Source of the DNA: Geosiphon pyriformis uo1
Taxonomy: Eukaryota; Fungi; Glomeromycota
Length of the DNA: 64,000 nt
Direction: 5' to 3'
Assembly (NCBI GenBank): GCA_016748015.1
Contig: JAAOMT010000082.1
Location: forward strand, 110,857 to 174,856
In this document: positions 3,609 through 53,173 of the stretch, in pieces
How positions within the stretch are numbered: position 1 is the stretch's first letter
How the letters are laid out: each line of letters begins with the position of its first letter
The notes under the pieces: generated by a model
Seen by the model: the letters and a program-made list of their open reading frames with translations, nothing else
The model's database searches: none
Told to the model about the DNA's origin: nothing
Program-made: the position numbers and the translations under genes

Positions 3609-3636
3609 AAATCACCAACCTATTCATCACAAAAAA

Positions 3637-5010
3637 ATGAACAATTACCTTTACAAAAACTTCAAGCAATATTTAGAAACACTACAAGTTAATGAAAACA
3701 TGCCAATAGAAAAGCTAATTAAGCTCCAGAAATTATCAAGACATTATTTCATCCAAAATCACATACTCTATTATCAGAATTGACAAAATTCAGACAATCT
3801 ATTAAGAGTTATAACCACAGATGAAAAAAAAACTATCTTATTCAACATGCACTCAAATATTCATTCAGGCCATTTTGGAAAAACAGCAACTATCCAACAT
3901 GCAATTAGTCATTACTATTGGCCCAAAATGAATTCAGATATAATCCAATATATAAGAAATTGTAATCCATGCCAATGGAAAGAAGAAGCAAAAACAACTG
4001 AACCATTGAGACCAATAAAAATGAGACAGCCATTTGACAGAATTGGAATTGATTTAGTTGGACCATTATTAATAACAACAAGAAACAACCATTATATTGC
4101 AATAACCATGGATTATCTTACTAAATGACCAGAAGCTAGAGTTATTAAAACAGCTAATGCTATTTTAGTAGCTCAATTTGTACATAAAAACTTAATTTGC
4201 TGCCATAAATGTCCACAAGAGTTGCTATCAGATCAAGGCACACACTTTGTAAACAGCACTTTAAAAGAGCTTAGCCAAAGATTTGGCATTAAACAACTAC
4301 TATCATCATCATATTATCCATAAACAAATAGATTAGTTGAACAGTTTAATTACACATTATGTGAATTACTGGCCAAAATTAGCAATGAACATGAAAAAGA
4401 ATGGGATTTATTCATACCAGCAGCATATAGAATATTGAAACAAGATACTATACAATTTACATTATTTGAATTAGTTTATAGAAGAAAAGTTACATTACCA
4501 GTTGAACTTACTATTCCAATTTATCCAAGTGACACTATCACTAAAACAACATTCAATGAAACACTACCTAAAAAAACATATGAATTAATAGAAACTTTAG
4601 AAAACAAAAGAAAAAAAGCAGCACAAAATATTAAACAGTCACAAAAACAACAAAAAGTAAGACATAACAACTAGTTACCAGATAATATAGTTAACTATAA
4701 AATTGGAGATAAAGTATTATTGTACTGTACTAAAGCTAAAAAACAATGGAGTGGAAAGTTTGATCACAAGTGGGATAGACCATTTTACATTCATAAAATA
4801 CTTGAAAATAAAACATATAAGTTAAGACTGGATGAAAAGATATTAAAAAAAGCAGCACATAATAACTGGCTAAAATTATATCACAGTAAACTAGTAATAA
4901 TAACACAAACACCCAGAATTAGAACACAATTACTATTAGTGTTATCAGATCAAATTCTATGAGATTTAGAACCAGTAGTTTTAATTGAACAGTATTCAAA
5001 AGATAATTAA
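3637..5010 (+). pseudogene. A1 stand-alone integrase ORF
   Basis: Own ATG (MNNYLYKN); HHCC (HSNIHSGH...CNPC); DDE core (IGIDLVGP, SDQGTHF); GPY/F-like KWDRPFYI; C-terminal LEPVVLIE. Confidence 0.88.
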
Positions 5011-10800: not shown

Positions 10801-13448
10801 CATAATGCCAAAATAATTTATGAATTAGCCATGATTCTAATTAATGAAGAAACCAAAAAAAATATATGTTAAATGAAAAAAGTTGAATATATTAAGTACA
10901 TTATAGAATTAGTTGAATTTGATTATGAAGATGAAGTAGAAACATAACACCAAATTGCAAGTTATACTTACCTAACCCAAAAAGCTCAAGTTCAACAATT
11001 AAAGCAAATAAACATTCAATTGTGTAAAGTATACATCATGCCTTGTGATAACAAATAGTGTCCAAAATGCTATGCACTTAGCATTCTTTTGTCCAGCAAA
11101 AATGACCAAAAAGAAATTAAACTCAGAAATTCTAAACTAGAGAAAAAATTCCCAACAATTCCAATCTATCTTATTGAAAATCAACCAGCTCTATAACTTA
11201 AATACTTTGACAACAATGGCCAAGGAATCAAGCCTAAAAAAGCTTATAAAATTGATGCAAGATATGATCTACAATATTCTGATAAAAATACTTTAGTTCT
11301 TTAACCAAAGTTTTTAACAAAAATCAACTTTAGAATTGCTCTTAAAATACTACCAGGAACAATAATTCAAATTGCTTCTTGATCATTATTGGCAAGCAAA
11401 GAAATTAATGTCAGAAGAAAAATTATAAATACAGAATACACTGAAGATATTATTATTATGATACAGAATAAAACTAAAAAATCATTTAGAATAAAACATA
11501 CTAAAAAGATTGCTCAAGCAATTTACTTACTTTTAATCAATATTTTAGAGTTACAATTAGTTAGTAACACAGAATAATTAGACAAAAACGAAAGAAAAAT
11601 ACAAGGTTTTGGTTTAACTGAACAATTTACAATTTTAATAAATATAGCCTTTAATACACAGAATGAATCTTATCAGATTTTTCAACTTCTCCAACCAATT
11701 ACCATATTACTTTTCAGAAAACATCATGAGATATACACTTGTTTAAAACCTACTACTACCCAACAAATTTTTGAATCCAATAAACAAATTTGTTTAAAAC
11801 ATGAAATCTCAATTCCAAATATCTATATACCAAAAGAAATAAAAAAATTTAGAGTTACTTTCTATAATCCCAACAATCACCTCATCATTTTATTAAATAA
11901 ATTAAAAATTGAAATCATATATAGCAACATCTTTTAAGATAAAATCTCTCAGATTGTTAGCAATTTCATTAAAGTTGTAAGATATACTTTACTTCCAAAC
12001 TTAAACATCACTTCTACTACTGAAAATTATTATATCTTAGAAGAAAAACTCTCTTGAATCAACATGGGTCTCTTAGAATCATTACAATAAAGACAATTAA
12101 AACAGCTAATTGCTGAATACACTGACATATTTGCTAAAGATAACAATAACTTTGAAAAAACTAATATTGTTTAACATCAAATTCATACTGGAGATACTCT
12201 ACTAAAATGTTAATAAGCTTATCAAGTTCTACTTGCCAGTTACCAATTCATTAGAAAAAAAGTACAACAAATGTTCAACAATAGTTTTATTTAACTATCA
12301 AAAAATCCTTGAGTCTTATCAATAGTTTTTGTTAAGAAAAAAAATGGCAAAATCGGATTTTGTGTAGATTATTAACAGTTAAATAATGTCATAATCAAAG
12401 ATGTCTACTTTTTTCCAAGAATTGATAACATATTAAATGCTTTGGAAAAAGCCAAGTTCTTCTCAATTTTAAACTTGAAAAGCAGATACTAACAAGTCAA
12501 AATAGACCAAAGAATTGTCTCAAAACAGTATTTAACACTCAAGAAAAAAACTATAAATTTAATATTATGCCTTTTGGACTCTGCAATACACCAGTAACAT
12601 TCTAACAACTTATAAATATTGTCTATAAAAGACTTTTATAACAATTAGTAGTGGTTTATTTTCCAACTTTTGAAGCTTATCTGATTTACCTATAAGAAGT
12701 ATTTTAATGATTACAGAAAACAGGATTAAAGCTAAACATCAAAAAATATCATTTCAGAAAAACAAGTCTGATTTTTTTTGGACACATAGTTAGCAAAGAT
12801 GGAGTTCAACCAAATCCAGAAACAATTAGTGCTATCAAAAACTTTTAAATTTTCTGAAATATTACTGAATTAAAAAGATTTGTAAGATTAACTTTTTATT
12901 ATTAAAAATTCATCAAAAAATTCTCTGAAATTGCAAAATTTTTTAATTATCTGACCAACAAAAATATACTTTACTAATAAACTAAAGAACAACAAAAAGT
13001 CTTTAAAACTCTTAAAACAAAATTGATAACAGTCTTAATTCTTGTTTATTTAGACTTTAACAAATAGTTCTAATTAGTCACCAATGCATTACACATAGTT
13101 TTTGGTGCCATCTTATTACAATTAGATAACAATAATAATAAGCAAGTAATTACTTATGCTAACAGAACACTTAAACCAACAGAACTAAAATATGGCTCTA
13201 TTAAACTAAAAACCATAGCTGTAATCTGGGCCCTTAAACATTTTCAACAATACCTTCGAAATAGACCACAATTTGACATTATTACAAATAATATTGGCCT
13301 CAAATAGCTTAACAAAAAAAAATTTAAACTTAATGCCAAACAATTATAATAAACTGATTTTCTAGCTGATTACAAATATATTGTTTACTACAAATCTGGC
13401 AAACTACATACCAATGTGAATAGTTTCTCAAAAATAAGGCAAACTTAA
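7880..13448 (+). pseudogene. B gag-PR-Cys-rich-dUTPase-RT-RNaseH
   Basis: MTTTYIAKITEFTG (~8597); CHYCG knuckle (~9307); LILDSKSA (~9940); IDARYDL and ASxSLLA dUTPase (~11.2-11.6 kb); FCVDY (~12360); ends FSKIRQT*. Confidence 0.8.
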
Positions 13449-13510
13449 CACCAATATCAACAAATATTAACAAATCTACCAGCTTAACAAAATCAACAAA
13501 ATTAACAACA

Positions 13511-14331
13511 ATAGGCTCAGAAACTTACAACAATATCAAACAATATTTGGGGACACTTATCCTACCAGAAAATTGGGTTTCAAGTAAAAAACATTAATTA
13601 CAAAACCAAGTAAAATAATATTTTATCTATCACAACAAAATTTATTACCAAAATCACAAAAACCCAACCAATTTATTCAGATTAGTACAAAAAAATAAAA
13701 AATAAACAATCTTGTATAATATGCATATTGACTTTTTATGAACATATTTAGAAAAAAATAGTATCATCCAAAAAATACTTGAACATTATTTTTGGCCTTA
13801 AATGCAAAAAAACATTTGACAGTACATAGAATTATGTGATAGTTGTCAAAGAAGAAAAAGAATACACTCCACTGAACTTTTAAATCCAATCAAAGTTGGA
13901 CAATCTTTTAACAGTATAGGAATTAATTTAGTTAAACCACTATCTATTACCATTCAAAGAAACCATTATATTGCTGTTACAATAGACTATCTTACCAAAT
14001 GGTCTAAAGCCAGAGCTATTTAACAAGCAGATGCAAAATCAGTAGCAAATTTTATCTATAAAGATATTATTTGTAGACATAGATGCTCAATTAAACTTTT
14101 ATCTGATTAAGAAACACATTTTGTAAACAACTTGATACAAAAAATTTGTGAACAATTCAATATTAGAAGACTTCTATTATTATCTTATTATCTCTAAATA
14201 AATAAATTTGTAAAATGTTTAAGCCAGACATTGTGTAAATTACTAGTCAAAGTTTTAACTAATTTTAAGTAAAAATAGAATATTTTTATTCCATTAGTAT
14301 TACTAATTTATAAAACACTAAAACAAAATAC
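13511..14331 (+). pseudogene. B integrase, N-terminal part (continues 31030 to ~31594)
   Basis: ACAACA-ATA (decayed ATG)-GSETYNNIKQYL; CDSCQR; IDYLTKW; split by C1. Confidence 0.8.
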
Positions 14332-16681: not shown

Positions 16682-19343
16682 GTGCATCTCCAAAAAGTGA
16701 GAGTACAAGCCAACCAGAAAAAAACCCCTTTTATACTTTTAACCTAATTAATAATGATCATGATATAAAAAAACTGGCAATCAATATCTCTGACTTAACA
16801 AGAAAGAAAAAAAAAGCCAAGGTTGATTTTGCTTTAAATTCTAACAAAGTCTCAACTTCCACTACAGACAACAATAAGCCACCAAAGGCTAAAGTTATTA
16901 AAAATCCTCCAAAATTGGAATCTTCAGAAATAGTACAAAAATCTGGTCCTTATTTTGTTGTTAAAGATCTCATAAAAACTTCAGCACACATTACATTTGG
17001 CCAACTAATGATCCATCCACAGTTCAGAAAAGATTTTTACAAATTATTGATACCAAAAACTAACAAGTGCCCTTGTCAAGCTGGATTTGTTGATAATAGC
17101 AATGTTACTCTTCTGATTTGCAAAGCCCAAGTAGCTGGCTACTTTATTGATTTGATCCTAAACAGTAAATTATCTGTTAGTGTAATTGCCAAACACTTTC
17201 TGAAAGCCATTGGAAGAAAAATTGATGAACTTTCTACCCAGTCTATAACTAATATACATGGTAACAAAAAGAAAGGTCTGGGTATAGTTAAAGCTATTCT
17301 TGTTTGCATCAATAATATCAGCATTAAAACAGATATGAAAGTATCTAAAACAAAAAAGTATATTATAATTGTTGGTAATGAGTGGCTTAAGAAAGCCAAA
17401 GCACTACTTGACTATGAACTTTGTGAACTAACCATCAGATGTGGTGAAAAACCCATTGTGGTTAAATGCTGTTATTGGACAACTCTTCTAATAACCAAAC
17501 AAAACCAAGAAAAAGAACAATTAGATAAATTAGATAATAATAAGAGTAATGATGAAGAAGATTAAAAAAAACAAGAAGAAACTGCTAAACTTGTCTATAC
17601 TATCTTCACCAGCAATAGCAAGCCACTAAACAATGTTAAAGTTAACAAAGAAGGAATCATGGTAAATGACAAGCTGATTTGCTGGCCTTACTATAATATC
17701 CTCAGAAAAACCTTTGACAGAAAACCTGGCAAGAAAGCCAAATACAGTTATTGGTGATATGGTCTTTGTGCATAGTGCTGGTGTAATAAATTTTTGTATT
17801 CACCAAGTAATAAATGCAAATTCTGCCTGATCTATTACAAAAATTGGGAATCAATTAGCTTGATATCTTGAGAAAAACTTAAAGAAGTACAAAAGTTCTT
17901 TGAAAATGAACCACCTGAAATCCAATTACTAGTTGTAAAACAAAGAGAACTTTCCTTTGAAAAAGAAAAAATAGACATTGAAAATCTGTTGGCTGGAAAT
18001 AGCTCAGTTATTTCAAAAGAAAATGACACCTCTGGATGAACCCATGTAATACAATACACTATTACCACCAAAGAAACTTGCCTCATCCATTTAAAGCCTT
18101 ATCAATTCAATTAACACAATGATAAGTTTATCAAGAAAAAGATAAACCAGATAAAAGATCTTAGATTTATACAAAAAACCAAGAGTGAATGGGCTTTCCC
18201 AATTGTAGTGGTATCCAAGAAAGGTAGAATTCTACACTTCTGTGTCAACTATTATCAATTAAATGCCATTACTATAAGAGACATATACTCACTCCCCAAA
18301 ATTGATGCAATGCTAAATAAATTCAATAGTGCTGTTTTCTTCTCAACTATTAACTTAACTGCTGGATTTTGGCAAGTAGAGATAGATCCAAAAAGCAGAA
18401 AAAAAACTGCTTTTATTACCAAGTATGGCATCTATGAATTTACAGTCATGTCTTTTGGTCTTACCAATGTCCCTCCCACTTTTCAACACCTAATGGACAA
18501 AGTGTTTGAATCAGTAAAAGAAAACTTTGTTTTGGTTTATTTGGACAATACAATGGTATACTCAAAAACCTGAGATAAACATCTTAAACACCTGCAAAAA
18601 GTTTTTGACCTCCTTAGAAATGCTGGCCTCAAGATAAACCCAATCAAATCTTTCTTTAGACACCAATTCACCCAGTTTTTTGGTTATTTTATTACAAAAG
18701 ATAGAATTTTCCCTGACCCAGTTAAAGTAAAAAAGTTCAGAACATTAGACAACCAATGAATGTTTCTGAACTATGCTCTTTCCTTGGTTTGGCTTTTTAT
18801 TATTGCAAATTTATCAAAAATCTCTCCAAAATTGCCTTTCCACTCAATCAGCTACTCAAGAAAAATGTCAATTATCACTGAGGTACTCATTAACAAAAAG
18901 CTTTTGAAATTCTGAAAAAAAAACTTGTTACTGAACCAATTCTCAAGCAACTTGACTTGGACCAACTTTTTATTCTCCACACTAATACATCTGACTATGA
19001 ATTTGGTACTGTTCTATCACAAAAAGATAAAAATAATAGAGAACATGCTATAACATATGCCAGTAGATTTCTTACACCCACAGAAAAGAACTATTCAGTA
19101 ACTGAACAAGAATGCTTAGCAGTAGTTTGGGCTACTAATTACTGGGATCAATATCTTTTTGGTGCAAAATTCTTAGTGGTAACAGATTATTAAACCTTGG
19201 TTTGGCTATGCAATAAAAAAAAGCTAGAACACAAATGGATAACTTGCTGGATACTTCACTTGGATAAATTCAACTATGACATTCAACACCACAAAGGAGC
19301 TAATCATCAAAACGCCAATGTTCTTTCCAGACTCACTATTTAG
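16669..19343 (+). pseudogene. C1 pol (PR-RT-RNaseH), in the -1 frame relative to gag, no dUTPase
   Basis: LILNSKLSVS (PR); HFCVNY; SFGLTN; VYLDN; LHTNTS; ends LSRLTI*. Confidence 0.82.
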
Positions 19344-19411
19344 TAATAGTACAACTTTTTTAAACCAAACCAACTTAATTATTAGTAACTTCTCTTTTGA
19401 CAAACACGATA

Positions 19412-20718
19412 ATGAACTTGAACAACTATTCTGCCTTAATAGAATTTTTGGATAAAGGACAATACCCACCAGAATACATTCAATAGCAAAGAGAACATTT
19501 GCACAAACAATCAAATTTCTATTTGATTTGCTAAAACCAATTATATAAAAGAAACAAAAAAGATTCTGACCATCTCCAAAGAGTCTTAAAATTTAAAAAA
19601 AAAAAATTGTGATTTATAACATGTATACTAATTCATTAGCTGGACACTTTGGAAAAACAAAAACAATTTAGAAAACCTTAACTCACTATTATTGGTCTAC
19701 CTTGGGAAAAAACATTGTTGAGTACATAAAAACCTGTAATATCTGCCAAAAAAAAGAAAAACCCAATCAAAAAGAAGATATTCATTCAATCTCTGTTGGT
19801 CAACTATTTGACAGAATTGGTATAAATGTTGTTGGACTTTTAACAATAACTCCTGATGGCAATAGATATATTATCACAGCTACTAACTATCTTACAAAGT
19901 GGGTAGAAGCAAGAGCCACTCCAGACCAAACAGTAGTCTTAATAGCCAATTTTATTTATGAAGATATCATTTGCCATTATGGCTGCCTTAAAGAGCTTTT
20001 ATCTAATAAAAGAAGAGCTTTTCTCAGTACACTGGTTGAAAAACTTTGTAGAAAAATGGGAATATGTTATAAACTTTCTTTTCTTTACCACTCTCAAACA
20101 AATAGCTTAGTGGAACGTTTTAATAGAACATTATGTGAAACTCTAGCTAAAACCAGTGAAAAAACAAACTTATGAGACAAAGTACTGCCTTCAGCTTTGT
20201 TTGCTTATAGAACTGTGAATTATGACATAACAAGTTATGAATCTTTTTATCTACTCTATGAATACATAACAATATTACCAATAGAAACTAATATTGAGAC
20301 AATACTCTTTGAAGAAATCACAATAAAAAATTACAAAGACATTTTGCAAAGAAAACTTGGTACCATTCTTGACTTTTTGATAAAAACATAAATAATTGTT
20401 TTTGAAAAGATAAAACAGTTTCAAGAAAAGCTCAAAAAGAAGAAAACTTATAAAACACTTTTTTTAAGTGTTAATAACTTAGTATTGGAATACCATTCAG
20501 ACAGAGACAATGTCTATGGTAATAAATTCTCTAACCAGTGAAAAAAACCCTTTATAGTCAACAAAGTTTTAAACAATGGTTCTTATATTTTTCAAGATCA
20601 ATCCAGAACAATCTTTAATGATTGTTCTGTTCATAGTATATGACTCAAGAAATATTATAAACAGTCTGATTAATTGTTTGTTGTACTAATACTGACCCAA
20701 ATGATTAGCAGAAATTAA
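19412..20718 (+). pseudogene. C1 stand-alone integrase ORF
   Basis: Start MNLNNYSALIEFL; LAGHFG; CNICQ; IGINVVG; LVERFNRTL. Confidence 0.82.
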
Positions 20719-20875: not shown

Positions 20876-21742
20876 TGTTACGGTTTAAAAATTTAGCAAA
20901 AAGAATCATAAAAATAATACAAACTATTCAATCATAATATAGCACAGTAATAATCTTAGAAAGGTAATGATTAACATAGTAGCAAACACCATCTCGCGAT
21001 AGTGGCAAGCACCAGTTCACAATAGCAGCCAACACCAACTGGTGATAGCAGCAAGCACCAGGTTGAAATATCAAAAAGAAAGTATTTTCTCGTAGAACTA
21101 CAAACATGTATATATACAGTAGTTTTAATATTGGGAAAGCATCAATCAAGTAATAAAAATCATACCTTATCAAGCAATAGATCCAATTTTATCCAACAAA
21201 CTCCACTTTAAATCATACTTTCAAATTAAATATCCCAAGAAACCTTTAAAATCAAAAAGAAATGAAAAAGAATATTTAAAACTGAACTATCACAACCCAA
21301 AGTATTAAGAAACTTACTTGTATTATTTATTGAATGAAACTATCATTCATCAACTGAATCCCTTGGAAGAATAATCCTTGATCAAGATTATTCACGTTGT
21401 TACTAATTGATAAAAGCTTTATTGTGAGAATTAGAAAAGCGCTAAAGGCCATTAACCTTCTGTGTTTCTAGATTAGAGAAAGACATCAGGCAATTGCAAG
21501 GATAGCCTCAGAGAAGACCCCAGACAGTGGGTAGATTTCAGTTCAGCCTCTGAGAAGGAGTACATAAACACACACAACAATCAAGAATTAAAGAATAACT
21601 TACATTGCAACAGTAAAAAGAAAGCCTTCAGTGTAACAAGTAACCTTATCACACAAATAGAATTGAGGAACTCACGAAAGACTGATTGCAATTAAAGTGG
21701 GATATCAGCAATTAAATATAACAAGAAAACCATCCCGTAACA
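20876..21742 (+). repeat. A2 5' LTR
   Basis: Near-identical to 29007-29777; TATA at ~21109; AATAAA at ~21152. Confidence 0.93.
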
Positions 21743-22405: not shown

Positions 22406-25400
22406 TCTGAATCAGAATCCGAAAAAGAGACCAGCGAAAAAACAATCACAAGACCAGTCACTGGAACAAGCAGCCAGTCCAGAAACCAAGAAACTCGTGA
22501 TTAAGAGGAAGAACCAGATATAAGGGAAGCCACCTTTAGGAATGCTCAAGGAAATATCATCCCACCTCCTCTTAGACCAATAAACCCACCAGCAGAAAAT
22601 GGCAACGAAATGACCACACCATACATTGCAAGACTAACAGATTTCTCAGGAGAGGAAGAAGAAACGGACGTGCACACATGGCTCAGAGAAGCACAAAAAG
22701 CCATCCAGGCAAATAACTGGAACGACCAAAGAGCAATTCAAACATTACCTTTCTTCTTGAAAGGCACAGCCGACTCGTGGTATCAAAGCCTGGAAACAAA
22801 ACCCACGAGCTTCGCCGAATTTAAAAATGCACTCCTGGAGTATTTTAGCAACCCAAATGCCGTAATCCAACTACAGAACGAATTCAATACTATCAAGCAA
22901 AATACCGGTGAAACTGTCACCCAATACCTTGCTCGATTCAATCGAATTTGCCGTCAGATTGAAGCAATTGAACAAGGATACTACACTGATCCTTAGGTTT
23001 TAAATCAGTTTATTAGAGGATTAAAAAGCAGCATTTTAGGAAGAGTACGCCCTGCCCACCCTAATTCCTTACCAGAAGCCGTTACACTCGCCAGAGCCCT
23101 TGAATCGGCTGAAAAAGAAGCTAACCATAGTCAAATGGTTAACATGGTAATGGAGGAAAATAAGACAGAAACATTAGAAAAAAGAGTAACGCAATTAGGG
23201 GAGAAACTTTCTAAGAAAATAGAAAGTTACCTCATCCCGGATCTGAGAAAAAATACATACCAACCACCCCAAAGACGCAGCCAGGAAGTCAGCGACAGTC
23301 GAAATAATCGCTCGTCGCACCAGGAATTCAGAACAGAAACACACGCCTGCCATTTTTGCAAACGCGTAGGACATTTGATTAGTCAATGTCGAATGTGAAT
23401 GATGCAGGAAGCACGTGAAAATAATTACTACACGCCACCCCAAATGCCCTGAAACCAGTATATGCCAATACCACGCCAATATTCCACCACGTATCAAAAT
23501 CAAGGAGCTTACCAGCAACAGCCCATGATAGCCAACCCGAATTGGCGTCCTGAGGCCCGAAATCAGCCCATGTGGAACCAGAACGCGTTGGTCCAGAGGA
23601 ATCCAAACCGCACCGGAACCAATCAGCAAACCAATCCAAACTACCAAAATTATCAACAAACTTACCTTAATATACCAGAAAACCTGATCATCGGAAACAA
23701 TGACGGTAGAAACATAAACAGAACCAAGAATTCCTCCAAATTGAGCCAGACAATACCACCAGCAGTTGCCACCGAAGATAGCAGCCTCGCAGCTATTTTT
23801 CCTTTTGAATTAGAGGAAAACGAGGCTATGTTCAGTGGAGCAGCATTGGACGAAAAACGCCCAATCACTGCTATGTATACGGAAGCCACTGTAAACAATA
23901 CCCCAATCANNNNNNNNNNNNNNNNNNNNNNNNNNNNNNNNNNNNNNNNNNNNNNNNAAATTAACAGCATAGTAATACCTACAAAAGTATTAGTAATAGA
24001 CACTACACAATATCAAGTGTTAGTAGGGAATGACTGGCTAACAAAAGCCAATGCCACCCTAGACTGGACCACCCAAGAGCTTCTGATCAATTATAATGGC
24101 CACCAGGCCAAAATTCCAGCCACCTGTGGCCACTTCCAAAAACCCAGCGCCAACCAAAGACCTACCTTCGAATTTGAGGAAAATCCAGCACTACCAGCCA
24201 TCGAAACCTATCAGCTCTCTCGGGCTGATGACCAAAGAACAGGACTACCAGCCGTACCAACGTGGACCAGCGAAGAAAAATCTGAATGGAACCAGGTAAG
24301 TTCACGAAGAAACCACCAGCGACACAGACCAAAGCTAGAATGCTCGGTTTGCAAGAAAAAACTCTCGTCTATGACTGCGTGCAGCGCACCGGACAAAGAC
24401 CCAAGAAATCTCACCCACTACTATTGTAACCGTTGTAACAAAGAAAAATACGGTTACCCAGAAAGACACGGAAAATGGGACGAGGAACCATGCCTCGCTT
24501 GTGGAGAACCATTACCAAGAGGGTGCGACTGGAACGACTTACCAGGCAGAGGAGGAACGTGTGACGCAACTTGCCAATACATGATCCTCATCTGTGACTA
24601 GGTAAGAGGAGGAACGCCATTCGAAGCAGCGTTCAACAGAGCGTTAAAAAAACTACAGCACTACCCACACGACAAGGATGAGTTGTACAACACCGCACAA
24701 GCCAAAGTAAGAGAAGGAACCGCCGAAGAAATACGACGTTGGAAAGAGTCAGCCAAAGTAGCCGATGAAGTCGCCAGCTACAACATGTTCGACCCAGTGG
24801 ACAAATTCCAAGACTACTACCAACAACTATGCCCCACTCGACAAGAGCAAGAACAATACCTTGCCCAAATCAACACTTACCTCTGCGAAAACTGTCTCAT
24901 CCCGTGCCAAAGTCAGTGCTGTGAAGAGTGTCAAGACAAAAGGGACTTAGAAAGAAAAATGGAAATTGAGAATCAGCAGTCTCAAAATCAATCAATAAAT
25001 CAACAAGACTCACCTGACGGTCCCGAGTCAGAAAAATTTGTAGCCTATACCGACCTAGAACAGGTGACCGACATCTGATACTTCGACAACGGGCACTTAG
25101 GAATAATACCCAAAAGAGCCCATCCAACCGACGCCGAATTCAATCTACGTTATCCGGAAGACCAATCCACAACGTTACCACCCAGGAGCATCACCAAAAT
25201 CGACCTAAAATTAGCGGTTAAAATTCCGCCAGGAATAATGGTTCAAATGGCGTCGCGATCAAGCCTCGCGAAAAAAAGAAATAAGCGTTCAAGGAGGAGT
25301 AATTGACTCCGGATACACTGGAAATTTGATGGTTTTGCTACAGAACAATTCAGAAAAGCCTTATACCATTGAATCTAAGGAAAAGATTGCACAAGCAATT

Positions 25401-27237
25401 TTCCTACCATTGGTAAAAATTGGGAAATTTGTGCCAGTAGAAAATCGTGAGGAATTGTCACAAACAACGAGAGGAACTTTTGGTTTCGGATCGACAGGAA
25501 AAGGAATTGAAGCGAATTTCGCTGAAACAATAGAGGAAAAAGGCGAAGTAATTAAAAATGAGTGGTCTATCACGCTCCTACCATATAGAAAATCAGAAAT
25601 AAGAATAAAAAGGACAATTAAAGAAAAAGACCTAATATTTGAGCCCTACCCAGAAACTTGCCAACAGTTTCTCATAGGACTTACTAACCTTTTTATTCCA
25701 GCTGATAAAGCTCAATGGATAAAAATTTCTATCGCAAACACCACAGAAGAACCCGTCTACATTCCGGAAGATACCATCATTGGATACCTCGGAACGGAGC
25801 TAGAAAATGCGTTAACACCACAAAAAATTCTAAATTTCCCAGAAATCGCCCTCTACTGTAAACTCACTTCAATAAATTGGCAACAACCGGTAGAATGCTA
25901 TCAATTTACGCCAGAAGAATTGGCCAAATTAAACATTGGAACAATGGATCCCGACCAACAGCGACAATTAAAAGCATTAATTTTAAAATACTCTGATATA
26001 TTTTCAAGAAATGGCGAATTTGGAAGAACCAACTTGGTTCAACACCAAATCCCCACTGGAGACGCCAGACCTGAAAAACAACGCGCTTACCGTGTCCCAC
26101 CAATGGAGCATAATTTTATCAGAGAAGAAGTCCAAAGCATGTTGGAAAAAGGAATAATACAATCATCAATGAGCCCATGGTCCTCACCAGTTGTTTTAGT
26201 AAGGAAAAAGAACGGAAAAATTAGATTTTGCGTCGACTATCACAAACTAAACAGCAAAACAACCAAAGACTCATACCCAATACCGTTAATTGACGAAATC
26301 TTCGACGTTTTTGGAGGAGCAAANNNNNNNNNNNNNNNNNNNNCCATTTGGATTAACAAACGCTCCCGCGACATTCCAAAGACTAATGGACGTAATTTAC
26401 TCCAGAATCCTGTGGCAATCCGTTGTTGTCTACTTGGATGATACAAATGTTTTCTCGTCAAAATTCACGGATCATCTCCAACATTTACAACAAGTTTTTG
26501 AGAGATTGAGACATGCTGGACTTTAACTAAATCTAGAAAAATGTTTCTTTGGGAAAAATGAGCTGGCATTTTTAGGACACGTAGTTGGAAAAGATGGAAT
26601 AAAACCAGATCCATCAAAAATAGACAAAGTGAAAAATTTTCCAGTACCTCGAAACGTCTCAGAAGTTAGAAGCTTTTTAGGACTTGCATCTTACTACTGC
26701 CGCTTTGTAGAAAACTTTTCAAACATCGTCAAACCCCTTAATTACCTACTATCTAAAAATGTGAAGTTTGAATGGACTGAAGCACAACAAAAAGCTTTTG
26801 AGTACCTTAGACAAAAGCTCATTGAATCACCAATAATGATCTATCCGAATTTCAACAAGAAATTCATTTTGGCCACAGATGCCTCTGGAACTGGACTTGG
26901 AGCCATTCTGTTACAAAAAGATGATAATGGAAGAGAACGTGTAATCGCTTATGCCAGCAGAAGTCTCAGTATGGCAGAACAAAACTACACAGCACATGAA
27001 CTTGAATGCTTAGCAGTAGTCTGGAGTTGTGTTCACTTTGACACATATTTACGGTACCAACCCTTTGAGATTACGACAGATCATAGAGGTCTGGTCTGGT
27101 TAAATAACAAGAAAGCGCTAAAAGGAAAATACGCCAGATGGTCACAAACGTTAGCACTATACGATTATATTATCAAATACAAAGAAGGTACCAAAAATGC
27201 TAATGCCGACTGTTTGTCAAGAATGAGACACACATAA
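22406..27237 (+). pseudogene. A2 single-frame gag-PR-Cys-rich-dUTPase-RT-RNaseH polyprotein
   Basis: ORFs 22610, 23135, 23462 and 24683 share one frame, broken only by transition-type stops; CHFCKRVGHLISQC; dUTPase ~25075-25500 (ASRSSLA, GVIDSGYTG, RGTFGFGSTG); one frameshift in an A-run at ~25275; FCVDY; YLDD; ATDAS; ends CLSRMRHT*. The true N-terminus is lost in gaps. Confidence 0.9.
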
Positions 27238-27267
27238 AAAATCACCAACCCACCCGCCACAACAACA

Positions 27268-28612
27268 ATGAACAACCACCTTTACAAAAACCTCAGCCAA
27301 TACTTGGAAACACTACAAATAGATGAAGAAATGCCAGTAAAAGAGCTAATTAAGCTCCAAAAATTAGCAAAACACTATTTCATCCAAAATCACATACTTT
27401 ATTACCGGAATCGACAAAATCCAGATAATCCATTAAGAGTTATAACCACGGATGAAAAAGAAACTATCTTATTTAACATGCACTCAGATATTCATTCAGG
27501 CCACTTTGGAAAAACAGCAACCATCCAACGTGCAACTAGCCGTTACTATTGGCCAAAAATGAGCTCAGACATAATCCAATACATAAGAAATTGTGACCCA
27601 TGCCAACGAAGAGGAGGAGNNNNNNNNNNNNNNNNNNNNNNNNNNNNNNNNNNNNNNNNNNNNNNNNNNNNNNNNNNNNNNNNNNNNNNNNNNNNNNNNN
27701 NNNNNNNNNNNNNNNNNNNNNNNNNNNNNNNNNNNNNNNNNNNNNNNNNNNNNNNNNNNNNNNNNNNNNNNNNNNNNNNNNNNNNNNNNNNNNNNNNNNN
27801 NNNNNNNNNNNNNNNNNNNNNNNNNNNNNNNNNNNNNNNNNNNNNNNNNNNNNNNNNNNNNNNNNNNNNNNNNNNNNNNNNNNNNNNNNNNNNNNNNNNN
27901 NNNNNNNNNNNNNNNNNNNNNNNNNNNNNNNNNNNNNNNNNNNNNNNNNNNNNNNNNNNNNNNNNNNNNNNNNNNNNNNNNNNNNNNNNNNNNNNNNNNN
28001 NNNNNNNNNNNNNNNNNNNNNNNNNNNNNNNNNNNNNNNNNNNNNNNNNNNNNNNNNNNNNNNNNNNNNNNNNNNNNNNNNNNNNNNNNNNNNNNNNNNN
28101 NNNNNNNNNNNNNNNNNNNNNNNNNNNNNNNNNNNNNNNNNNNNNNNNNNNNNNNNNNNNNNNNNNNNNNNNNNNNNNNNNNNNNNNNNNNNNNNNNNNN
28201 NNNNNNNNNNNNNNNNNNNNNNNNNNNNNNNNNNNNNNNNNNNNNNNNNNNNNNNNNNNNNNNNNNNNNNNNNNNNNNNNNNNNNNNNNNNNNNNNNNNN
28301 NNNNNNNNNNNNNNNNNNNNNNNNNNNNNNNNNNNNNNNNNNNNNNNNNNNNNNNNNNNNNNNNNNNNNNNNNNNNNNNNNNNNNNNNNNNNNNNNNNNN
28401 NNNNACTTGGAAATGGAGCATACAAGCTAAGACTAGATGATAAAATATTAAGAAAAGCAGCACATGGTAACCGGCTGAAATTCTATTACAGTAAACCAGT
28501 AATAACAGCAAAAACACCCAGAATTAGAACACAATTACCTTTAATTCTACCAGAACAAATTCCACGAGATTTAGAACCAATAGTTTTAATTGAACATTAT
28601 TCGAAAAGATAA
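27268..28612 (+). CDS. A2 stand-alone integrase (catalytic core hidden in an N gap)
   Basis: MNNHLYKNLSQYL; HSDIHSGH...CDPC; LGNGAYKL; ends DLEPIVLIEHYSKR*. No stop in the visible parts. Confidence 0.8.
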
Positions 28613-28697: not shown

Positions 28698-28986
28698 ATG
28701 ATACTTATTCCAGAAAACATCAACAATATAACTCAACAATTAGTTGAAAGCTTACAACAATTAAAATCTGATCTAGAAATCACAGTTAATAGCTCCAAAA
28801 TAACATACATAAAAAGAACAATAGAAAATCCAAAAACAAGAAAAGAACATAATTTCGAACCATATAATATTGCCAAATATAACAACAAATTTATTAGCAA
28901 AGTTATTGAAAAATTAGAGATAGCATTGGGCAATACATTAATAATGAAAAAAATAGAAATAAGTGAATTAACACCAGACACATTTA
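28698..28986 (+). CDS. A2 ORF3, truncated by a gap
   Basis: MILIPENINNITQQLVESLQ..., open up to the N run. Confidence 0.7.
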
Positions 28987-29006
28987 NNNNNNNNNNNNNN
29001 NNNNNN

Positions 29007-29777
29007 TAACATAGTAGCAAACACCATCTCGCGATAGTGGCAAGCACCAGTTCACAATATCAGCCAACACCAACTGGTGATAGCAGCAAACACCAGGTTG
29101 AAATATCAAAAAGAAAGTATTTTCTCGTAGAACTACAAACATGTATATATACAGTAGTTTTAATATTGGGAAAGAATCAATCAAGTAATAAAAATCATAA
29201 CTTATCAAGCAATAGATCCAATTTTATCCAACAAACTCCACTTTAAATCATACTTTCAAATTAAATATCCCAAGAAACCTTTAAAATCAAAAAGAAATGA
29301 AAAAGAATATTTAAAACTGAACTATCACAACCCAAAGTATTAAGAAACTTACTTGTATTATTTATTGAATGAAACTATTATTCATCAACTGAATCCCTTG
29401 GAAGAATAATCCTTGATCAAGATTATTCACGTTGTTACTAATTGATAAAAGCTTTATTGTGAGAATTAGAAAAGCGCTAAAGACCATTAACATTCTGTGT
29501 TTCTAAATTAGAGAAACACATCAGGCAATTGCAAGGATAGCCTCAGAGAAGACCCCAGACAGTGGGTAGATTTCAGTTCAGCCTCTGAAAAGGAGTACAT
29601 AAACACACACAACAATCAAGAATTAAAGAATAACTTACATTGCAACAGTAAAAAGAAAGCCTTCAGTGTAACAAGTGACCTTATCACACAAATAGAATTG
29701 AGGAACTCACGAAAGACTGATTGCAATTAAAGCGGGATATCAGCAATTAAATATAACAAGAAAACCATCCCGTAACA
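29007..29777 (+). repeat. A2 3' LTR (first ~95 bp lost in gap)
   Basis: Matches 20972-21742. Confidence 0.92.
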
Positions 29778-43900: not shown

Positions 43901-44782
43901 TGTTACTCATAGAATATAAGAAATATAGTATTATTAGTCAGTAAATATTAGCCAATCAGAGGTAGACATAGTAAATGTGGAATTCCAGAATTCCTCTTAG
44001 AGAAATTGCAGGATTCCAGGAATTTCAGAATTCCCCGACAAGAAATTGCAGAATTCCAGAATTTCAGGATTCCTCTCATCAGGAATTGCAGAATTCCAGG
44101 ATTCCTGTCGCAAAGAATTGAGGAATTGAGGAATCTCAATTATGTATATATAGCAGTAGGATTAGAAGCTAAAAAGACAGATCTCTCAGTTTAGATTTAA
44201 TCTAAGCAACATTCCAGTTCCCAATCATCAAATAAATAATTATTCCATATCTCAACCCACTCTCTACTATTAACACTTTATGTTGATAGTAATTGATACT
44301 TAACCACACTGGAACAATAGCTCTTGATCACGGCTATTGATGAAATACTAACATATCAAATTGTCTTGGCTTATTTTTTCTATTTTCTTTATTTTTATTT
44401 TCTTTATTTTATTTTCTTTCTTTTTTTGATTTTGGTGTTGTATACTAATTGATTAAAAGATTAAGCACTGAGTTATTGACATCAAAGATAGCCTGGTAAA
44501 AGACCCAGAAATAAGGGTAGGATTTTATATATTATCAGATAGCTTACCAGCAAAGCACGACTGCCAGACTAAATCTGGCCACCACGTTGAGAAAGAAATT
44601 GGAAAAACTCTTGGAAAGATACATTTACTATCAACCCTATTGAATCTTTGTCCATTATACAAAGAACTTTATCAAAACCTTCAGATACAACACTTGCAGA
44701 ACCTCATCCATGGAAGTAGCTTTTGAGCACCAAGTTATGGATTTGTTATTTAATTCAACAGCAGAAATAATTACCTGTAACA
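43901..44782 (+). repeat. D 5' LTR with GGAATTCC-type U3 array (~43978-44135)
   Basis: Matches 53174-54050. Confidence 0.93.
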
Positions 44783-44784
44783 TT

Positions 44785-44801
44785 TGGTGCTTCCTGTGAG
44801 G
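44785..44801 (+). promoter_or_regulatory. D primer-binding site
   Basis: TGGTGCTTCCTGTGAGG. Confidence 0.78.
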
Positions 44802-44844
44802 TATAATTCTACAGAGAACCAGCACCAACAAACACCATCTAAAA

Positions 44845-47800
44845 GTGGCAGAATCAGAAAATATAGGAGCAAACCATTTAGGATTTGCAAAATCTTTATT
44901 TCAACACTATTGTCAATACTTGAAATTAAACCACAATCATATATCTGCCGAATTAGTCTTCAATTTCTATGTCAACGAAAAGATTTCCTCTTTATTAAGA
45001 ACACCAGTGAATACTAAATCAGCAAGAGAAACTTTCTATAAGGAGTTAATTCAAAACACCAATCTGCCAACAAATCATAATTTCACATCCATCATCACTG
45101 AGATCAACAAAGAAATTGAACACCACACTCAACAAAGATATCTAATTACATATGCTAGTAAAAGCAAAGGAAAACTACAAACACCAGCAGTAACACCCAG
45201 AAAAATACAGCCATCTACTTAGAAGAAAAACAGAATTGAATCCCCAAGCAACCCATCCTACCACTATACACCTGGAAGTGCCATCAACATATCATCAACA
45301 GATGCATTTTCATCAACTGTGACATCAGCATTTGGACAATTCCCATTCCAAAGTAGACAAAAAAAAACAGAATTATTAAGACCATATGGCAAATACTTTG
45401 AGGGATTTAATTCATGATTATCAACCTCATCAGGACTTTGATCACTACTGCCTCCACCTGGAATCTCTGATCCATGGGAAGCAGCAGAATCAGAAAAAGA
45501 GGAAGAAGAATCAGAGAATCAAGAATTCACTTACCAGCACCCGATCACTGAAAACCCGGAAGTTGAAATCCCGAATTTTCAAACTCAGCAAAATCTAAAT
45601 CTAGAAAATTCAGAAATCAAAACTCCGAATTATCAAAGGCAGAACAATCCAAACTCTGAATTAATTAATCAGCAAAACTTACCTCCGGTAATTGTTATTA
45701 ATCAACTGCCGATTAATCCCATAGCCAAACCTATACAACAGCCACTTCAACTACCATCCTAACAACCAGTACAATAACAACTGCTTCAACAGCCACCACA
45801 ACCACCTAACTTAGATCCAATGGCCTATGCACCAATTGCAAAACTTGACAATTTTACTGGCAAAGAAGATAATGCTCAAGTATGGCTGAATGATGTAGAA
45901 AAGGCCATTGCAGCCAACAGATAGAATGATGCCCGAGCAATGCAAGCCATTCTCTACTTTCTCAAGAATACTGCCAATTCATGATATCAGAGCTTGGTTA
46001 ATAAACCACAAGATTTTAATGCCTTTAAAACGAAATTCCTAAGATATTTCAGCAACAATAACAGCATCAATCACCTAGTCAATACATTCACCACCATGAA
46101 ACAAGGAGAAACTGAAGCGGTCACCACTTACCTGGGACACTTCCATTGAAACTTGTGCCAAATTCAAGCAATTAACACCAACTATTTCACAGCCCCACAG
46201 ATACTCAACCAGTTTTTTCATGGCCTGTGCAGCAGTATCTTGCAACATGTACGTCCGTTGCATCCAGGCACTCTTCAAGATGCAGTCACATGTGCCAGAG
46301 ATTTTGAATCCGCTGAGTCAGAGGCTAACCATGCCCAAGCCATTAATCTAGTAATGAACGGATCATCTGAATTGGATTCCAAATTGGAGAAGTTCAGTAA
46401 ATCAATTAATAAGAGACTGGAAGAATACTTAACTGACAATCATGCCATTTATTAGTCTCCACAATAATGCAATAATCAAGGAAACTCTAATTGTGCCCAA
46501 AATTAATCATGTCCATCTTCATTGACCAATCAACAGTGACAACAGGAAACACGTATCTGCCACTATTGTGGTAAACAAGGACATATCTAAATTGACTGTC
46601 ACCAGCATTTAAATAACCAATGATCAAGAAACCAATATCAAAATCCTGATCACCAGTTCCAAACTCTGAATTAGTACCCAAATCAAAACCAACCCGCTTA
46701 CCTACCAGTAATGCAGTCATCAGTCTATCAATCTCTGGTGTATCAAGCTCTAATCTATCAACTGCAGCCACAAGTAATTTATTAACAACTGCAGCCACAA
46801 ATAATCTATCAGTCCCAACAAATCCAAATACCACCCCAAAGCTTACCACCCAACAGAACCCAAAGACTGAGAATGACTCAACAGAACTGGAGATCAGCAA
46901 TGGTAGTCCATCAACTGATCTTCAGTTCTTCACAGCAACTATCTGGATTATGCCAGTGGAATTCAGGTGCTGGTCAACCCCAGAACCCGAATTCTCAGAA
47001 CTATTTAAGTCTCTTGGTCACTCCAGAAAATGCCTCAACTAATAATCCAGCATTTACCCAAAAACAACCATTCACCAGTAATATCCCATCTGCTACCATC
47101 ACTGAAGATGAGTCTTTGGCTGCTATATTCCCATTCGAATTCGAGAAAACAACTGCAATGTCATTATTTAGTGGAGCCGCTCTTGAAGCCAAACCAATCA
47201 CCATGATGTACACTAATGCCAAAGTTGAGAGACAATCCATCAAATTGATCCTTGACAGCAGTTCAGCAGGCAGCATCATCACACGACAACTTATGAATTA
47301 ATTAGGTCACTGAGTTGATCGAGCTGCCAGCACCAGAATCATCACAGCTGATGGAGCGACCAAAACTCCAATCAGCAAAATCAACGACTTCCCTTTCGAA
47401 GTTAATGGCATCATAACTCCCATTAAAGTTCTAGTGATGGAAGCCACTCAATACCAAGCTTTCATTGGTAATGACTGGCTATTCAAAGTTAATGCAACAT
47501 TAGACTGGAACACCCAGGAATTCTAACTAACATATTAGGGCCAACACATACGTGTACCGGCCATGTGTGGCCATTTCAAGACTCCTCCAAGAGAGAAACT
47601 ATTGATCAAACTGGAGGAGAAGAAAGAGAAACCTACCTGGGAAGCTTACCAAGTCTCCTGGGCCAACACCAACCACAATGAACTACCACTAATACTCTTG
47701 TGGAATGACAACCCTAAGGGAAAGCAAAAAGAGGAACTGACCTGGAAAACAGACAATTTGATTTGGACCGACAATAAACAGGAAAAACCATTGAGTTGAG

Positions 47801-50800
47801 AATGGAAAGAAGAAAAGAGAAAAGGGAAAGAGAGGGAGAAAGAAAACACTCAACAACATTTATATTCCATACACCTATGGTCAACAACAATCATCAATCT
47901 ATCACCAATCCAAACTAATATGCATTAATTGCAGCAAGAAATTGTCATCAATGGGCACATGCTATGGTGACAATGAAGAATATCAGATGGCAACCAAGTT
48001 CTATTGCTGCGCATGCCATGTCAAACATTTTGGAAGACCAAAATGAGTGGGAAAATGAGATAATACACCATGTATAGCCTGTGGAGAAACTCTTCTCAAC
48101 AAAGAAATATGGAACAACATTCTGGGAAGAGGAGGAACATGTGACATGTCTTGCCAATACACGATCCTTATCAGTGATTGGGTCAAAAAAGGAACACCCA
48201 TAGAAGCTGCCTGGAGAAGAGCTGTACAGCAATTGGACATTTGTCTACATAACGATGATAAATTATGGCAAATGGCAATCGCCAAAATTGAAGGCGCATT
48301 GCCAGAAGAAATCAGAACAATTAAAAACAACCCACCAGAACCCATCGAGCTTGACTGAGACACAGAGCCAGTCATAAATTTTCTGGAATTAGAAAAGTTC
48401 CATGAACACTACCAAAACTTGGCATTCACTAGAGAAGAGCAAGAACAACGGCTAGCACAGTTAAATACAAGACTGTGTTGCCATTGTTTAATTCTCAGTA
48501 ACTTTGAATATTATGACAATTGTGATCTCATTTACAATCTACCACCATGCATAATCTACACGATCTCTGAAGAAGAAAAACCAATCAGCAACTATGCATC
48601 GGAATCAGAATTGCTGATCAATTGCAATCCAGACTCCAACAATGACGACAAAAACACTGGTTCCAGCTCCATTCAAAATGGCAATAACAACAAAGACAAT
48701 TCAAACTCAAATTCAAACTCCTATTTAAACTATGAACAATACATTGCACTACCAGATCTCTTCAAAGAACAAAAGTTGAAATGGTATAGTAACAATGGAG
48801 AAGATATTATGCCAGAACATGCACATGATACTGATGTAGGATTTGATTTGAGGTATTCAGAAAAAGAGGCCATCAAATTGAAACCACATTCACGTATCTG
48901 TATTGATCTAAAAGTAGCACTAGAAATTCCAGCAACAACAATGGTTCAATTAGCATCTAGGAGTAGTTTAGTGAAAAGAGAGATTAATATAAGAGAAGAA
49001 ATAATTAACACGGAATATATAGGAAATATCATTGTTATGCTACAAAATAACTCAGAAAAGGCCTATATAATAGAGCCCAATGAAAAGATAGCACAGGCAA
49101 TATTTCTGCCTCTGGTTAGAGTAGCTCAGTTAGTATCAGTGGGAAAAAGAGAGGAATTAGGAATAACAGTGAGAGGAATACAGGGATTCAGATCAATGAG
49201 TAGAATAGATATACCAGTTAATATGGCAGAGAAAAAAATTGTTGGCCAAGGAGAAATTATTTCAACCAGTCAAGCTATTTTTATTTCATCATATAACCAG
49301 TACATGCTAGCAATAGAAAGGAAGGAAAAAGACCAAGCACAAATTTTTGAAGCAGAAGCCAGTCTTTGTGAATTAGGAGAAGTTGGACTCATCAATCTCC
49401 ACATACCAGCCAAAGATTACAGTCACATCAAAATTCCCATCTACAACAATACAGGAAATGTCATAGAAATACCAGCCAGAATTATTATTGAATACTTAAA
49501 CACTGAAATAGAGGATCAACCACCGAACCTCATTTCAGACTTTCCACAACTTTGTGGATATGTTGATATCACATTACAAACAATATACGGATGAAGTGAA
49601 TGTTATTTGCTCCAACCAGAACAATTGGAACAAATGAACATAGGAAACTTAGATCCACTCCAATGTATGCAACTTAAGATGTTGTTCAACCAGTTCAATG
49701 ACATCTTTGCCAGTGAAAATGAGTTTGGCTGAACTGACATCATCCAGCATCAGATCAAGACTGGAGATGCAATGCCAATTAAACAAAGAGCATACAGAGT
49801 GCCACCAGTCAGCCACGAGATTATTCGTCAAGAGATAAACTGAATGCTTGACAATGGGCTAATTCAGCCATCAATGAGCTTATGGTCATCACCAGTGGTA
49901 CTTGTCCATAAGAAGAATGAAAAGATCCGATTTTGTGTAAACTACAGAAAACTCAATGGTATAACTTGTGGAGACAGCTATCCAACTCCACAGATACAGG
50001 AATTATTTGATGCTTTTGGCAGAAACAAATGGTTCTCAACGTTAGACTTAGATAGTGGTTACTAGCAAGTAGCCATGAATCCAGCCGACAAAGAAAAGAT
50101 GGCATTCACCACAAGAAAAGGGAATTTTGGATTTGAAGTAATGTCATTCGGTTTAACCAACACACCAGCCACTTTCCAATAGCTAATGGAAATTGTCTAT
50201 ACTGGCTTATTGTGGAAATCAGTAGTTGTATACTTGGACAACACCAACGTATTCTCAAAAACATTTGATGATCATCTTTATCATCTTCAACAAGTGTTCA
50301 AAAGACTAAGAAGAGCAGGGCTAAAGTTAAATGCAACAAAGTGCTTCTTTGGCAAGACAGAGCTAAAATTCTTGGAACACATAATCAGCAAAAACGGCAT
50401 CAAAACAGATCCAGAGAAAATAGAGATAGTAAAAAACTTTCTAGTGCCAACCTATATGGCAGAACTGAAATCATTCTTGGGATTCGCCAGCTACTATTGA
50501 CATTTTATCAAGAACTTTTCCAAGATAGCGCAGCCACTCAACCAACTGCAAACCAAGAATACCAAATATGAATGGGCAGAAAGTTAACAAGAAGCTTTTG
50601 ACATTTTGAAAGGAAAGCTCATTCAAGCTCCAGTACTGATTTATTCAGATCACAGCAAACCATTCATCATTACCACTGATGCATCCGGCCAAGCATTGAG
50701 AGCAGTATTATCTCAGAGAGGACCAGACAGCAGAGAACATCCAGTAGCATATGCCAGCAGAGGTTTAACACCAGCCAAAAAGAACTATGGAACACCGGAA

Positions 50801-51034
50801 CAAGAACACTTGGCAATATACTGGGCAGTCATGAAATGGAAAGAATACTTGAGCCAGAAGTTTGAAGTATACACAGATCACAAGAGATTAACATTACTCC
50901 AAAAACAAGAATTTGGAAATAAAAGACAGTCAAAATGGAAAATGGCACTCACACCATACAATTATACTATATATTACAAAAAAGGAAAAGACAATGGAAA
51001 TGCTGATGGTTTGTCGTGAATAAGACAAATCTAA
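44845..51034 (+). pseudogene. D gag-PR-Cys-rich-dUTPase-RT-RNaseH polyprotein
   Basis: ORF pieces share a frame except for one shift near 47850; CHYCGKQGH; LILDSSSAGS; DTDVGFDL and ASRSSL; FCVNY; FSTLDL; TTDAS; ends LS*IRQI*. Confidence 0.9.
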
Positions 51035-51096
51035 GAACATTTTAATACAAAAATATAACAAAACCAGAACAATACCAACGAAAAATATAACAAAAG

Positions 51097-52478: not shown

Positions 52479-52531
52479 TCGACAAAAGAATATATAAAAC
52501 CATAGTCGACACAACAGAAGAGAGCAGAAAA

Positions 52532-53160: not shown

Positions 53161-53173
53161 AAGGAGGAAATAA

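Follow-up and report, generated by a model that had tools for sequence, protein, structure and literature searches.

Ty3/Gypsy retrotransposons of Geosiphon pyriformis and related elements with integrase in a separate open reading frame

Integrase lies outside Pol in the Geosiphon elements

The stretch analysed here, a window of 64,000 nucleotides (nt) from contig JAAOMT010000082.1 of Geosiphon pyriformis uo1, is a nest of decayed Ty3/Gypsy long terminal repeat (LTR) retrotransposons of five families (A to E), in which integrase occupies an open reading frame (ORF) of its own (Table 1). In copies A2 and D, direct LTRs with TG...CA ends are flanked by a 4-bp target-site duplication (TSD), and a primer-binding site (PBS) with TGG lies 2 nt past the 5′ LTR; D also has a purine run ahead of its 3′ LTR. 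The domain order of gag, protease (PR), reverse transcriptase (RT), RNase H, then integrase, with Gypsy-type Pfam domains, is that of Ty3/Gypsy, and the window integrases are of the full Gypsy type, with H2C2, a DDE core and a GPY/F-like motif. Integrase is normally encoded within the Pol polyprotein of retroviruses and Ty3/Gypsy elements (PMC3248453, PMC6317226), whereas it stands apart at all six window junctions and in all 50 resolved relatives described below. Because integrase is not within the Pol polyprotein, we regard the elements as a Ty3/Gypsy variant.

At each of the six junctions the RNase H frame closes 3–4 codons past the RNase H end motif, a spacer follows and integrase begins anew, with stop, spacer and start where an initial reading of the DNA letters alone (the sequence-only reading) had placed them. 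The spacers are A/C-rich, contain 0–4 G and no ATG, and have predicted folding energies of 0 to −0.2 kcal/mol. The integrase ATG is the first ATG past the stop in five copies; the B spacer likewise lacks ATG, and a Geosiphon protein resembling the B integrase start (P0126) has Met where the B copy reads ATA. A Geosiphon gene model at NCBI matches the initial portion of the A2 integrase at 100% identity and has the same starting Met.

Some details of the sequence-only reading needed amendment. Its start motif, M-N-x3-Y-x2-L-x2-[YF]-[LI], does capture a conserved start, but A1 has F and B has I in place of its L. Its description of the spacers as frame-inconsistent suits the junctions overall, where frames are mixed, and fails for A2, whose spacer is in frame without a second stop. 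It had also relied on the recurrence of the split across divergent families: all five families are split, and their RT–RNase H regions are 38–68% identical, but they are not independent, since D and E2 share 77% nt identity over 4.8 kb, A1 and A2 86%, and all fall in a single RT–RNase H clade. As the five families and one metagenome locus (L009) form one starred clade in the RT–RNase H tree, they record one inherited split and not five.

Table 1. Coordinates of the elements, junctions and associated features. Positions refer to the window unless a metagenome locus (L number) is given.
Feature	Position	Strand	Details
A1 junction	3606..3639	+	TAA 3606-3608, 28-nt spacer, ATG 3637
B junction	13446..13513	+	TAA 13446-13448, 62-nt spacer, ATA 13511 at start position
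C1 junction	19341..19414	+	TAG 19341-19343, 68-nt spacer, ATG 19412
A2 5′ LTR	20876..21742	+	TGTTAC...GTAACA ends; 4-bp TSD CCAT; PBS starts TGG, 2 nt past LTR
A2 gag, PR, Cys-rich region, dUTPase, RT, RNase H	22505..27237	+	Decayed; apparently a single ORF originally
A2 stop ending Gag-Pol/RNase H	27235..27237	+	TAA
A2 RNase H/integrase spacer	27238..27267	+	In frame; 30 nt, A/C-rich with a single G, lacking ATG and structure; ATG 27268
A2 integrase ORF, own ATG	27268..28612	+	YPYY-like N-terminus, H2C2; centre missing in N gap 27620-28404
A2 ORF-X	28698..28986	+	Cut by N gap
A2 3′ LTR	29007..29777	+	98.4% identity to 5′ LTR; start inside N gap 28987-29006; followed by CCAT
Element D, full length	43901..54050	+	Decayed; gag-pol, integrase, ORF-X; PBS, purine tract; TSD CTGT
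D LTRs	43901-44782 and 53174-54050	+	91% identical
D junction	51032..51099	+	TAA 51032-51034, 62-nt spacer, ATG 51097
D integrase	51097-52478	+	H2C2, DDE, GPY/F-like
E2 junction	61241..61312	-	TAA 61312-61310, 66-nt spacer with second in-frame stop, ATG 61243
ORF-X, other copies	A1 ATG 5145; D ATG 52532; E2 about 59810-59400		E2 on minus strand
dUTPase	25239-25500 (A); 48800-49160 (D); 63250-63510 (E); about 11400 (B)		E on minus strand
RNA motif, examples	L027:3352-3387; L030:5193-5228; L047:1091-1126		Plus 23 more loci

The split is inherited

All window copies carry many scattered premature stops, mostly from C>T and G>A changes, and the RNase H stops could on this ground be read as decay, or as assembly artefacts of dead copies. 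We examined variants in Logan contigs of a DNA run of the host (X1), a single sample that is possibly the source of the window itself. For A2, 37 variants, again mostly C>T and G>A, were present at 5% among 1209 contigs, and the RNase H stop and integrase ATG of family A showed no substitution at that threshold. The family A spacer was shortened to 29 nt by a 1-nt deletion in the A-run adjoining the stop in 50481 of 115869 units of depth (18 contigs) and was otherwise 30 nt; the stop is thus fixed in this family and the frame is not. For D, 13065 contigs were free of indels at 10%. One of its decay stops, at 51436, was a sense codon in 140226 of 225457 units of depth, whereas the RNase H stop of A had no variant at 5%. 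Neither the RNase H stop nor the integrase ATG of D was among the 40 of 151 variants considered, and fixation is established for family A only.

Relatives were sought in soil metagenomes with six free-type integrases as queries, and the best 80 of 516 confirmed loci were used. Every one of the 50 RNase H/integrase junctions that could be resolved, the contig covering both the end of RNase H and the integrase Met (41 clusters at 80% identity), was split and none was fused. Met-starting queries do favour the split lineage, but the score of a fused member would be nearly as high. In the remaining 30 loci, two had a stop without a Met where one was expected and 28 had no RNase H in reach. An open Pol (400+ codons, or to the contig end) was accompanied by an open integrase (380+) in 38 of the 50 split loci. 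The integrases of the metagenome loci end at about 410–450 amino acids (aa), and 5 of 16 long contigs had LTR-like terminal direct repeats of 55–139 nt.

With family A fixed, 50 of 50 relatives split and 38 of them retaining the split with open frames, the explanation by decay or assembly artefact is refuted and we give it practically no weight. We also looked for the sense codon or open RNase H–integrase fusion in young copies that the sequence-only reading had set against its own claim, and found neither in the family A contigs of run X1 nor in the 38 open-frame relatives. Its central statement, that integrase has an ORF to itself and that the start of this ORF is conserved, is upheld by the six window junctions, the host DNA run and the 50 relatives, and its argument that the stop is not random decay by the family A invariance and the relatives. 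It is near certain that the split architecture is real and heritable, a lineage-wide variant of Ty3/Gypsy.

A profile from four window integrase N-termini matched 1899 proteins. Among the best 150, each a 50%-identity cluster, 78 have their initial Met at profile position 1 and one has a non-Met start; a further 14, mostly distant, are RNase H fusions, while 26 lack part of the N-terminus and 31 extend beyond it. Many of the best 120 RT–RNase H matches end 1–20 residues from the RNase H motif, although some of these short ends may be contig ends; others have an acidic tail of 200–400 residues without integrase, and Rhizophagus proteins are among these matches. A Lichtheimia protein, known as a protein alone, is a free-standing integrase. 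Word-index searches for longer proteins with two integrase N-termini returned one Geosiphon gene model each, which is weak evidence, and IMG/VR scans gave no match or distant elements only. Two integrases of the split type (P0287, P0288) are labelled as from an archaeal metagenome-assembled genome, on a 2.5-kb contig, and are probably mis-binned eukaryotic DNA.

Translation of the free integrase

Among the relatives, the 50 split loci divide 22/16/12 among the three frames, only two being in frame without a second stop, and end Pol with TAA (33), TAG (10) or TGA (7). An A at −3 precedes 42 of 54 integrase starts, compared with 96 of 313 internal ATGs (p=1e-10), and 25 spacers of 10–170 nt contain 4 ATGs where 15.9 were expected, a number as low in 0 of 1000 dinucleotide shuffles. 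Distances from stop to start, per cluster, were −20, −14, −14, −8, −8, −4, −1, −1, −1, +2 and +2, then 15–206 and 371–943 nt, some of the longest probably stemming from decayed Pol tails. Stop and start thus lie within −20 to +2 nt of each other in 11 of 41 clusters, three as TAATG and one as ATGA. Overlapping UAAUG/AUGA junctions mark termination–reinitiation in viruses and SART1, with efficiency dropping off past ~30 nt (PMC10275272), and LINE-1 ORF2 has been proposed to reinitiate over a 63-nt spacer (PMC5972666).

The sequence-only reading had offered reinitiation, internal entry and subgenomic RNA as candidate mechanisms, and judged from sequence features these remain the right set. Given the A at −3, the scarcity of spacer ATGs, the overlapping stop–starts and the precedents from viruses, SART1 and LINE-1, we rank reinitiation first, tentatively and at somewhat less than an even chance: integrase would be translated by ribosomes that finish Pol at its RNase H stop and begin again on reaching the integrase ATG. 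The small subunit would remain on the genomic RNA once termination occurs, and would either restart immediately, at the overlapping TAATG/ATGA/ATGnnTRA junctions of the relatives, or cross a short, unstructured, ATG-free A/C-rich spacer (24–68 nt in the clade of the window) to an ATG with A at −3. Integrase output would then fall below the RT level and protease release would not be needed; the free integrase would need its own way of reaching the particle or the complementary DNA (cDNA), perhaps through binding its own coding RNA, and foamy virus Pol provides a precedent for separate RNA-mediated packaging (PMC3196705).

Several observations weigh against reinitiation. AAT, TAC and GTA are depleted in the spacers similarly to ATG. 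A stop–start distance within the 20–30 nt or so tolerated by restart of the type that uses a TURBS (termination upstream ribosome-binding site) is found in only 15 of 41 clusters, together with window family A, and not in the rest. Four loci forming one intact cluster (L017, L020, L036, L045) have spacers of 192–446 nt with 2–10 upstream ATGs, which would be hard for scanning ribosomes, and L017 shares an RT clade with overlap elements. In 28 loci the end of RNase H showed no excess synonymous-codon conservation, which gives no sign of a shared upstream signal of the TURBS kind, an RNA element that pairs with 18S rRNA. In seven relatives integrase would also have to pass two low-yield steps, because an additional stop lies between protease and RT. 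Finally, a strong start context and an ATG-free leader suit a subgenomic mRNA equally well.

The additional stop is an in-frame TGA-CTA (L017:2498-2503, L018:2882-2887, L061:3290-3295, and also in L084, L020, L065 and L070). TGA-CTA is a readthrough context, and its use here is likely to be readthrough placed past protease instead of past gag. Unlike this stop, which is in frame in 7 of 7 cases, the RNase H/integrase stop of the same lineage has no TGA-CTA-like context.

Production of integrase from its own shorter mRNA, read by ordinary cap-dependent scanning, comes next and not far behind, although we consider it less likely than not; such an mRNA would start at a promoter inside pol or within the spacer, or result from an env-like splice. 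It would explain the strong start context and ATG-poor leaders, accommodate spacers of any length, including the long ATG-rich ones, and account for the double bottleneck of the readthrough families and for a further downstream ORF; in Tor elements env is expressed from a promoter located inside pol or just past it (PMC4402516). It does not predict the clustering of stops and starts at −1, −4, −8 and +2, though compaction could produce this, and we saw no shared promoter-like or codon constraint. The splice version is further opposed by 7 of 25 spacers having no AG, the last AG otherwise lying 1–114 nt ahead of the ATG.

Internal ribosome entry just 5′ of the integrase ATG, through structured RNA in one subclade and unstructured A-rich tracts elsewhere, including the window, appears improbable. 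What speaks for it is an RNA element of two helices, which a model search found once per locus in 26 of 86 loci (21 clusters), immediately 5′ of integrase and ending 1–33 nt, mostly 4–5 nt, before the ATG. In the alignment 94% of cells are paired and 8 of 10 pairs show double changes, a result that 0 of 500 shuffles equalled and that also exceeded slid controls, although the structure was derived from the same rows as were shuffled and related rows inflate the test. Rfam returned no match for the motif at the gathering score (14 loci) or at E<=10 (14 loci), and the covarying pre-ATG structure is new here. However, the motif is missing from 60 of 86 loci, and its model found nothing credible in the window (best E 0.33); a stable hairpin might just as well assist reinitiation, serve packaging or the binding of integrase, or act in processing. 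The motif occurs mostly in the clade with long Pol tails. In that clade an extension of 200–350 aa, acidic and partly Cys/His-rich, follows the RNase H motif at the end of Pol (L027, L030, L042, L047, L058, L075, L078), with no Pfam match in L030.

That a fused Pol–integrase is still produced, by stop readthrough, frameshifting or Ogre-like splicing of the spacer, is very unlikely. In its favour, A2, L009 and L085 are in frame with a single stop, the inter-ORF region of Ogre is an intron (PMC6317226), and three proteins whose integrase N-terminus is similar are RNase H–integrase fusions (P0088, P0184, P0251). All three routes fail because the frames are mixed, even within family A with its 29- and 30-nt spacers. 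Readthrough and programmed frameshifting are rejected as the general route, since neither frame nor stop context is fixed, in contrast to the protease/RT stop; intron rejoining is rejected as well, since just 2 of 31 short-tail clusters, and none of the six window junctions, could accommodate an in-frame GT-AG intron. Nor would a fusion require an invariant Met with A at −3.

Other cistrons and neighbouring features

The sequence-only reading had called the lineage tricistronic, with gag, pol and integrase apart. This fits only family C, where both copies have a −1 shift at the same T-run at the gag–pol boundary (about 16620-16630 and 56397-56407), a candidate programmed frameshift; families A, B and D, by contrast, read gag, protease, dUTPase and RT in one frame apart from copy-specific shifts, and among the rows considered appear to have had a single gag-pol frame. 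A third cistron does exist as a small ORF 3′ of integrase (ORF-X), homologous among A1, A2, D and E2.

In the relatives a different conserved ORF of ~140 aa lies 3′ of integrase (L007:4516-4929, L075:5455-5874 and about 15 more loci), sometimes joined to it by ATGA or a gap of 3–5 nt. Its product is predicted to be all-helical (predicted local distance difference test score, pLDDT, 94). It had no match to window ORF-X and none in Pfam, among sequences in the Protein Data Bank (PDB) or by fold (best Z 5.2, root-mean-square deviation 4.5, 86 aligned), which does not imply a new fold.

In families A, D and E, and in B according to tblastn, protease and RT are separated by a dUTPase-like region with a Cys-rich region upstream of it; a dUTPase at this position is unusual for Ty3/Gypsy. 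An exact duplicate of the A2 protease region (21884-22385 and 23660-24053), situated between two gaps of 20 N, is probably an assembly artefact.

Phylogeny and the relation to Ginger1

For the RT–RNase H tree, 7 of 68 rows were dropped as long branches or near-duplicates. The 39 split-type rows and a single fused row on a long branch form a group with support of 84/87. Three of the split-type rows are Rhizophagus proteins, known as proteins alone, and the Rhizophagus rows fall among the metagenome loci. Constraining the split elements to monophyly was not rejected (approximately unbiased test, p=0.57), so that their monophyly is compatible with the data but not shown. The integrase tree, which includes about two thirds of the split loci and whose bootstrap is unsettled, is a polytomy; the subclades within it correspond to those of RT, the pattern of an ordinary element. 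Within it the fused P0088 pairs with the split L086 at 93/87, a possible re-fusion or ancestral state.

The integrase N-terminal domain of the split elements resembles the YPYY motif, which is common to Ginger1 and a small number of Gypsy groups, among them the Rhizopus element Gypsy-1-I_RO (PMC2836005). The only Ginger1-like row, P0258 (with a Ulp1 domain), falls in the integrase polytomy and does not group with the split integrases. The position between Ginger and fused Gypsy that the sequence-only reading had put forward as possible finds no support in these trees, and a Ginger link would be no more than a candidate reading.

A wider picture, which we consider doubtful, is that of a large, old and undescribed Mucoromycota clade of Ty3/Gypsy elements that would be polycistronic (gag-pol, integrase, small helical protein), would make free integrase by stop–restart or internal entry, would have acquired a new RNA structure that regulates this step or brings in integrase in cis, and would be a lineage of the sort that could yield free-standing Ginger1 integrases through loss of gag-pol.

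Comparison with known systems

We found no description of a Ty3/Gypsy lineage with a separate integrase ORF in the literature searched, including the available parts of PMC3248453, PMC13465315, PMC13524379, PMC5006619, PMC6317226 and bioRxiv 10.1101/2021.03.30.436303; Repbase, Dfam, subscription journals and supplements lay outside this scope and may hold one. That integrase has stayed separate across RT–RNase H regions only about 40–60% identical indicates that its coupling to Pol is dispensable. The lineage raises two questions, by what means a fungus translates a second long cistron and how a free integrase reaches its cDNA, for which dozens of natural junction variants and the new RNA motif could be used in reporter work. 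It also makes a passage between LTR elements and Ginger1 plausible. Intact split elements will be scored as broken by annotation pipelines, which will label their integrases Ginger-like or host genes.

The closest known elements are the YPYY-type Ty3/Gypsy elements (Athila/Tat-related, Gypsy-1-I_RO, DGLT-A; PMC2836005), which are alike in TGT...ACA LTRs, 4-bp TSD, PBS, the order protease, RT, RNase H, integrase, and an integrase with a YPYY-like N-terminus, H2C2, DDE and a GPY/F-like motif, whereas the Geosiphon integrase lies outside Pol with its own ATG past the stop. Gypsy-1-I_RO, compared here without its ORF layout, may be a deposited member of the split type.

Among termination–reinitiation systems, SART1, hypovirus CHV1 (UAAUG) and the TURBS of caliciviruses and influenza B resemble the relatives in having stop and start out of frame and overlapping or close (PMC10275272), and the LINE-1 ORF2 spacer matches the window spacers of 62–68 nt (PMC5972666). 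No LTR element is among these systems, and in none is integrase set apart from Pol; relative to the TURBS systems, no TURBS-like upstream motif was found in the split elements and many spacers exceed 30 nt.

Other LTR retroelements, namely Ogre and Bianca of plants, Tor of Oikopleura and foamy virus with its Pol, also express a downstream part apart from the upstream ORF, by way of an intron, an internal promoter or a separate Pol with its own packaging. Their break, however, lies before RT or env and integrase is kept in Pol, and no intron fits the split elements. DIRS-1-type tyrosine-recombinase retrotransposons likewise carry the integrating enzyme on an ORF apart from RT and RNase H (PMC5006619), but with another enzyme class and other termini, whereas the split elements have a DDE integrase between ordinary LTRs.

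Ginger1 and GIN1 share with the split elements a free-standing Gypsy-type integrase (YPYY, H2C2, DDE, GPY/F), TGT ends and a 4-bp TSD. Ginger1 consists of a single transposase between terminal inverted repeats of 40–270 bp and has no RT, whereas the split elements have direct LTRs, gag and RT and no long inverted repeats; its TSDs are CCGG or CCGT, those of the split elements CCAT (A2) and CTGT (D); and its integrase has an OTU or Ulp1 domain at the C-terminus, which the split elements lack, the split-type protein P0134 having integrase domains only.

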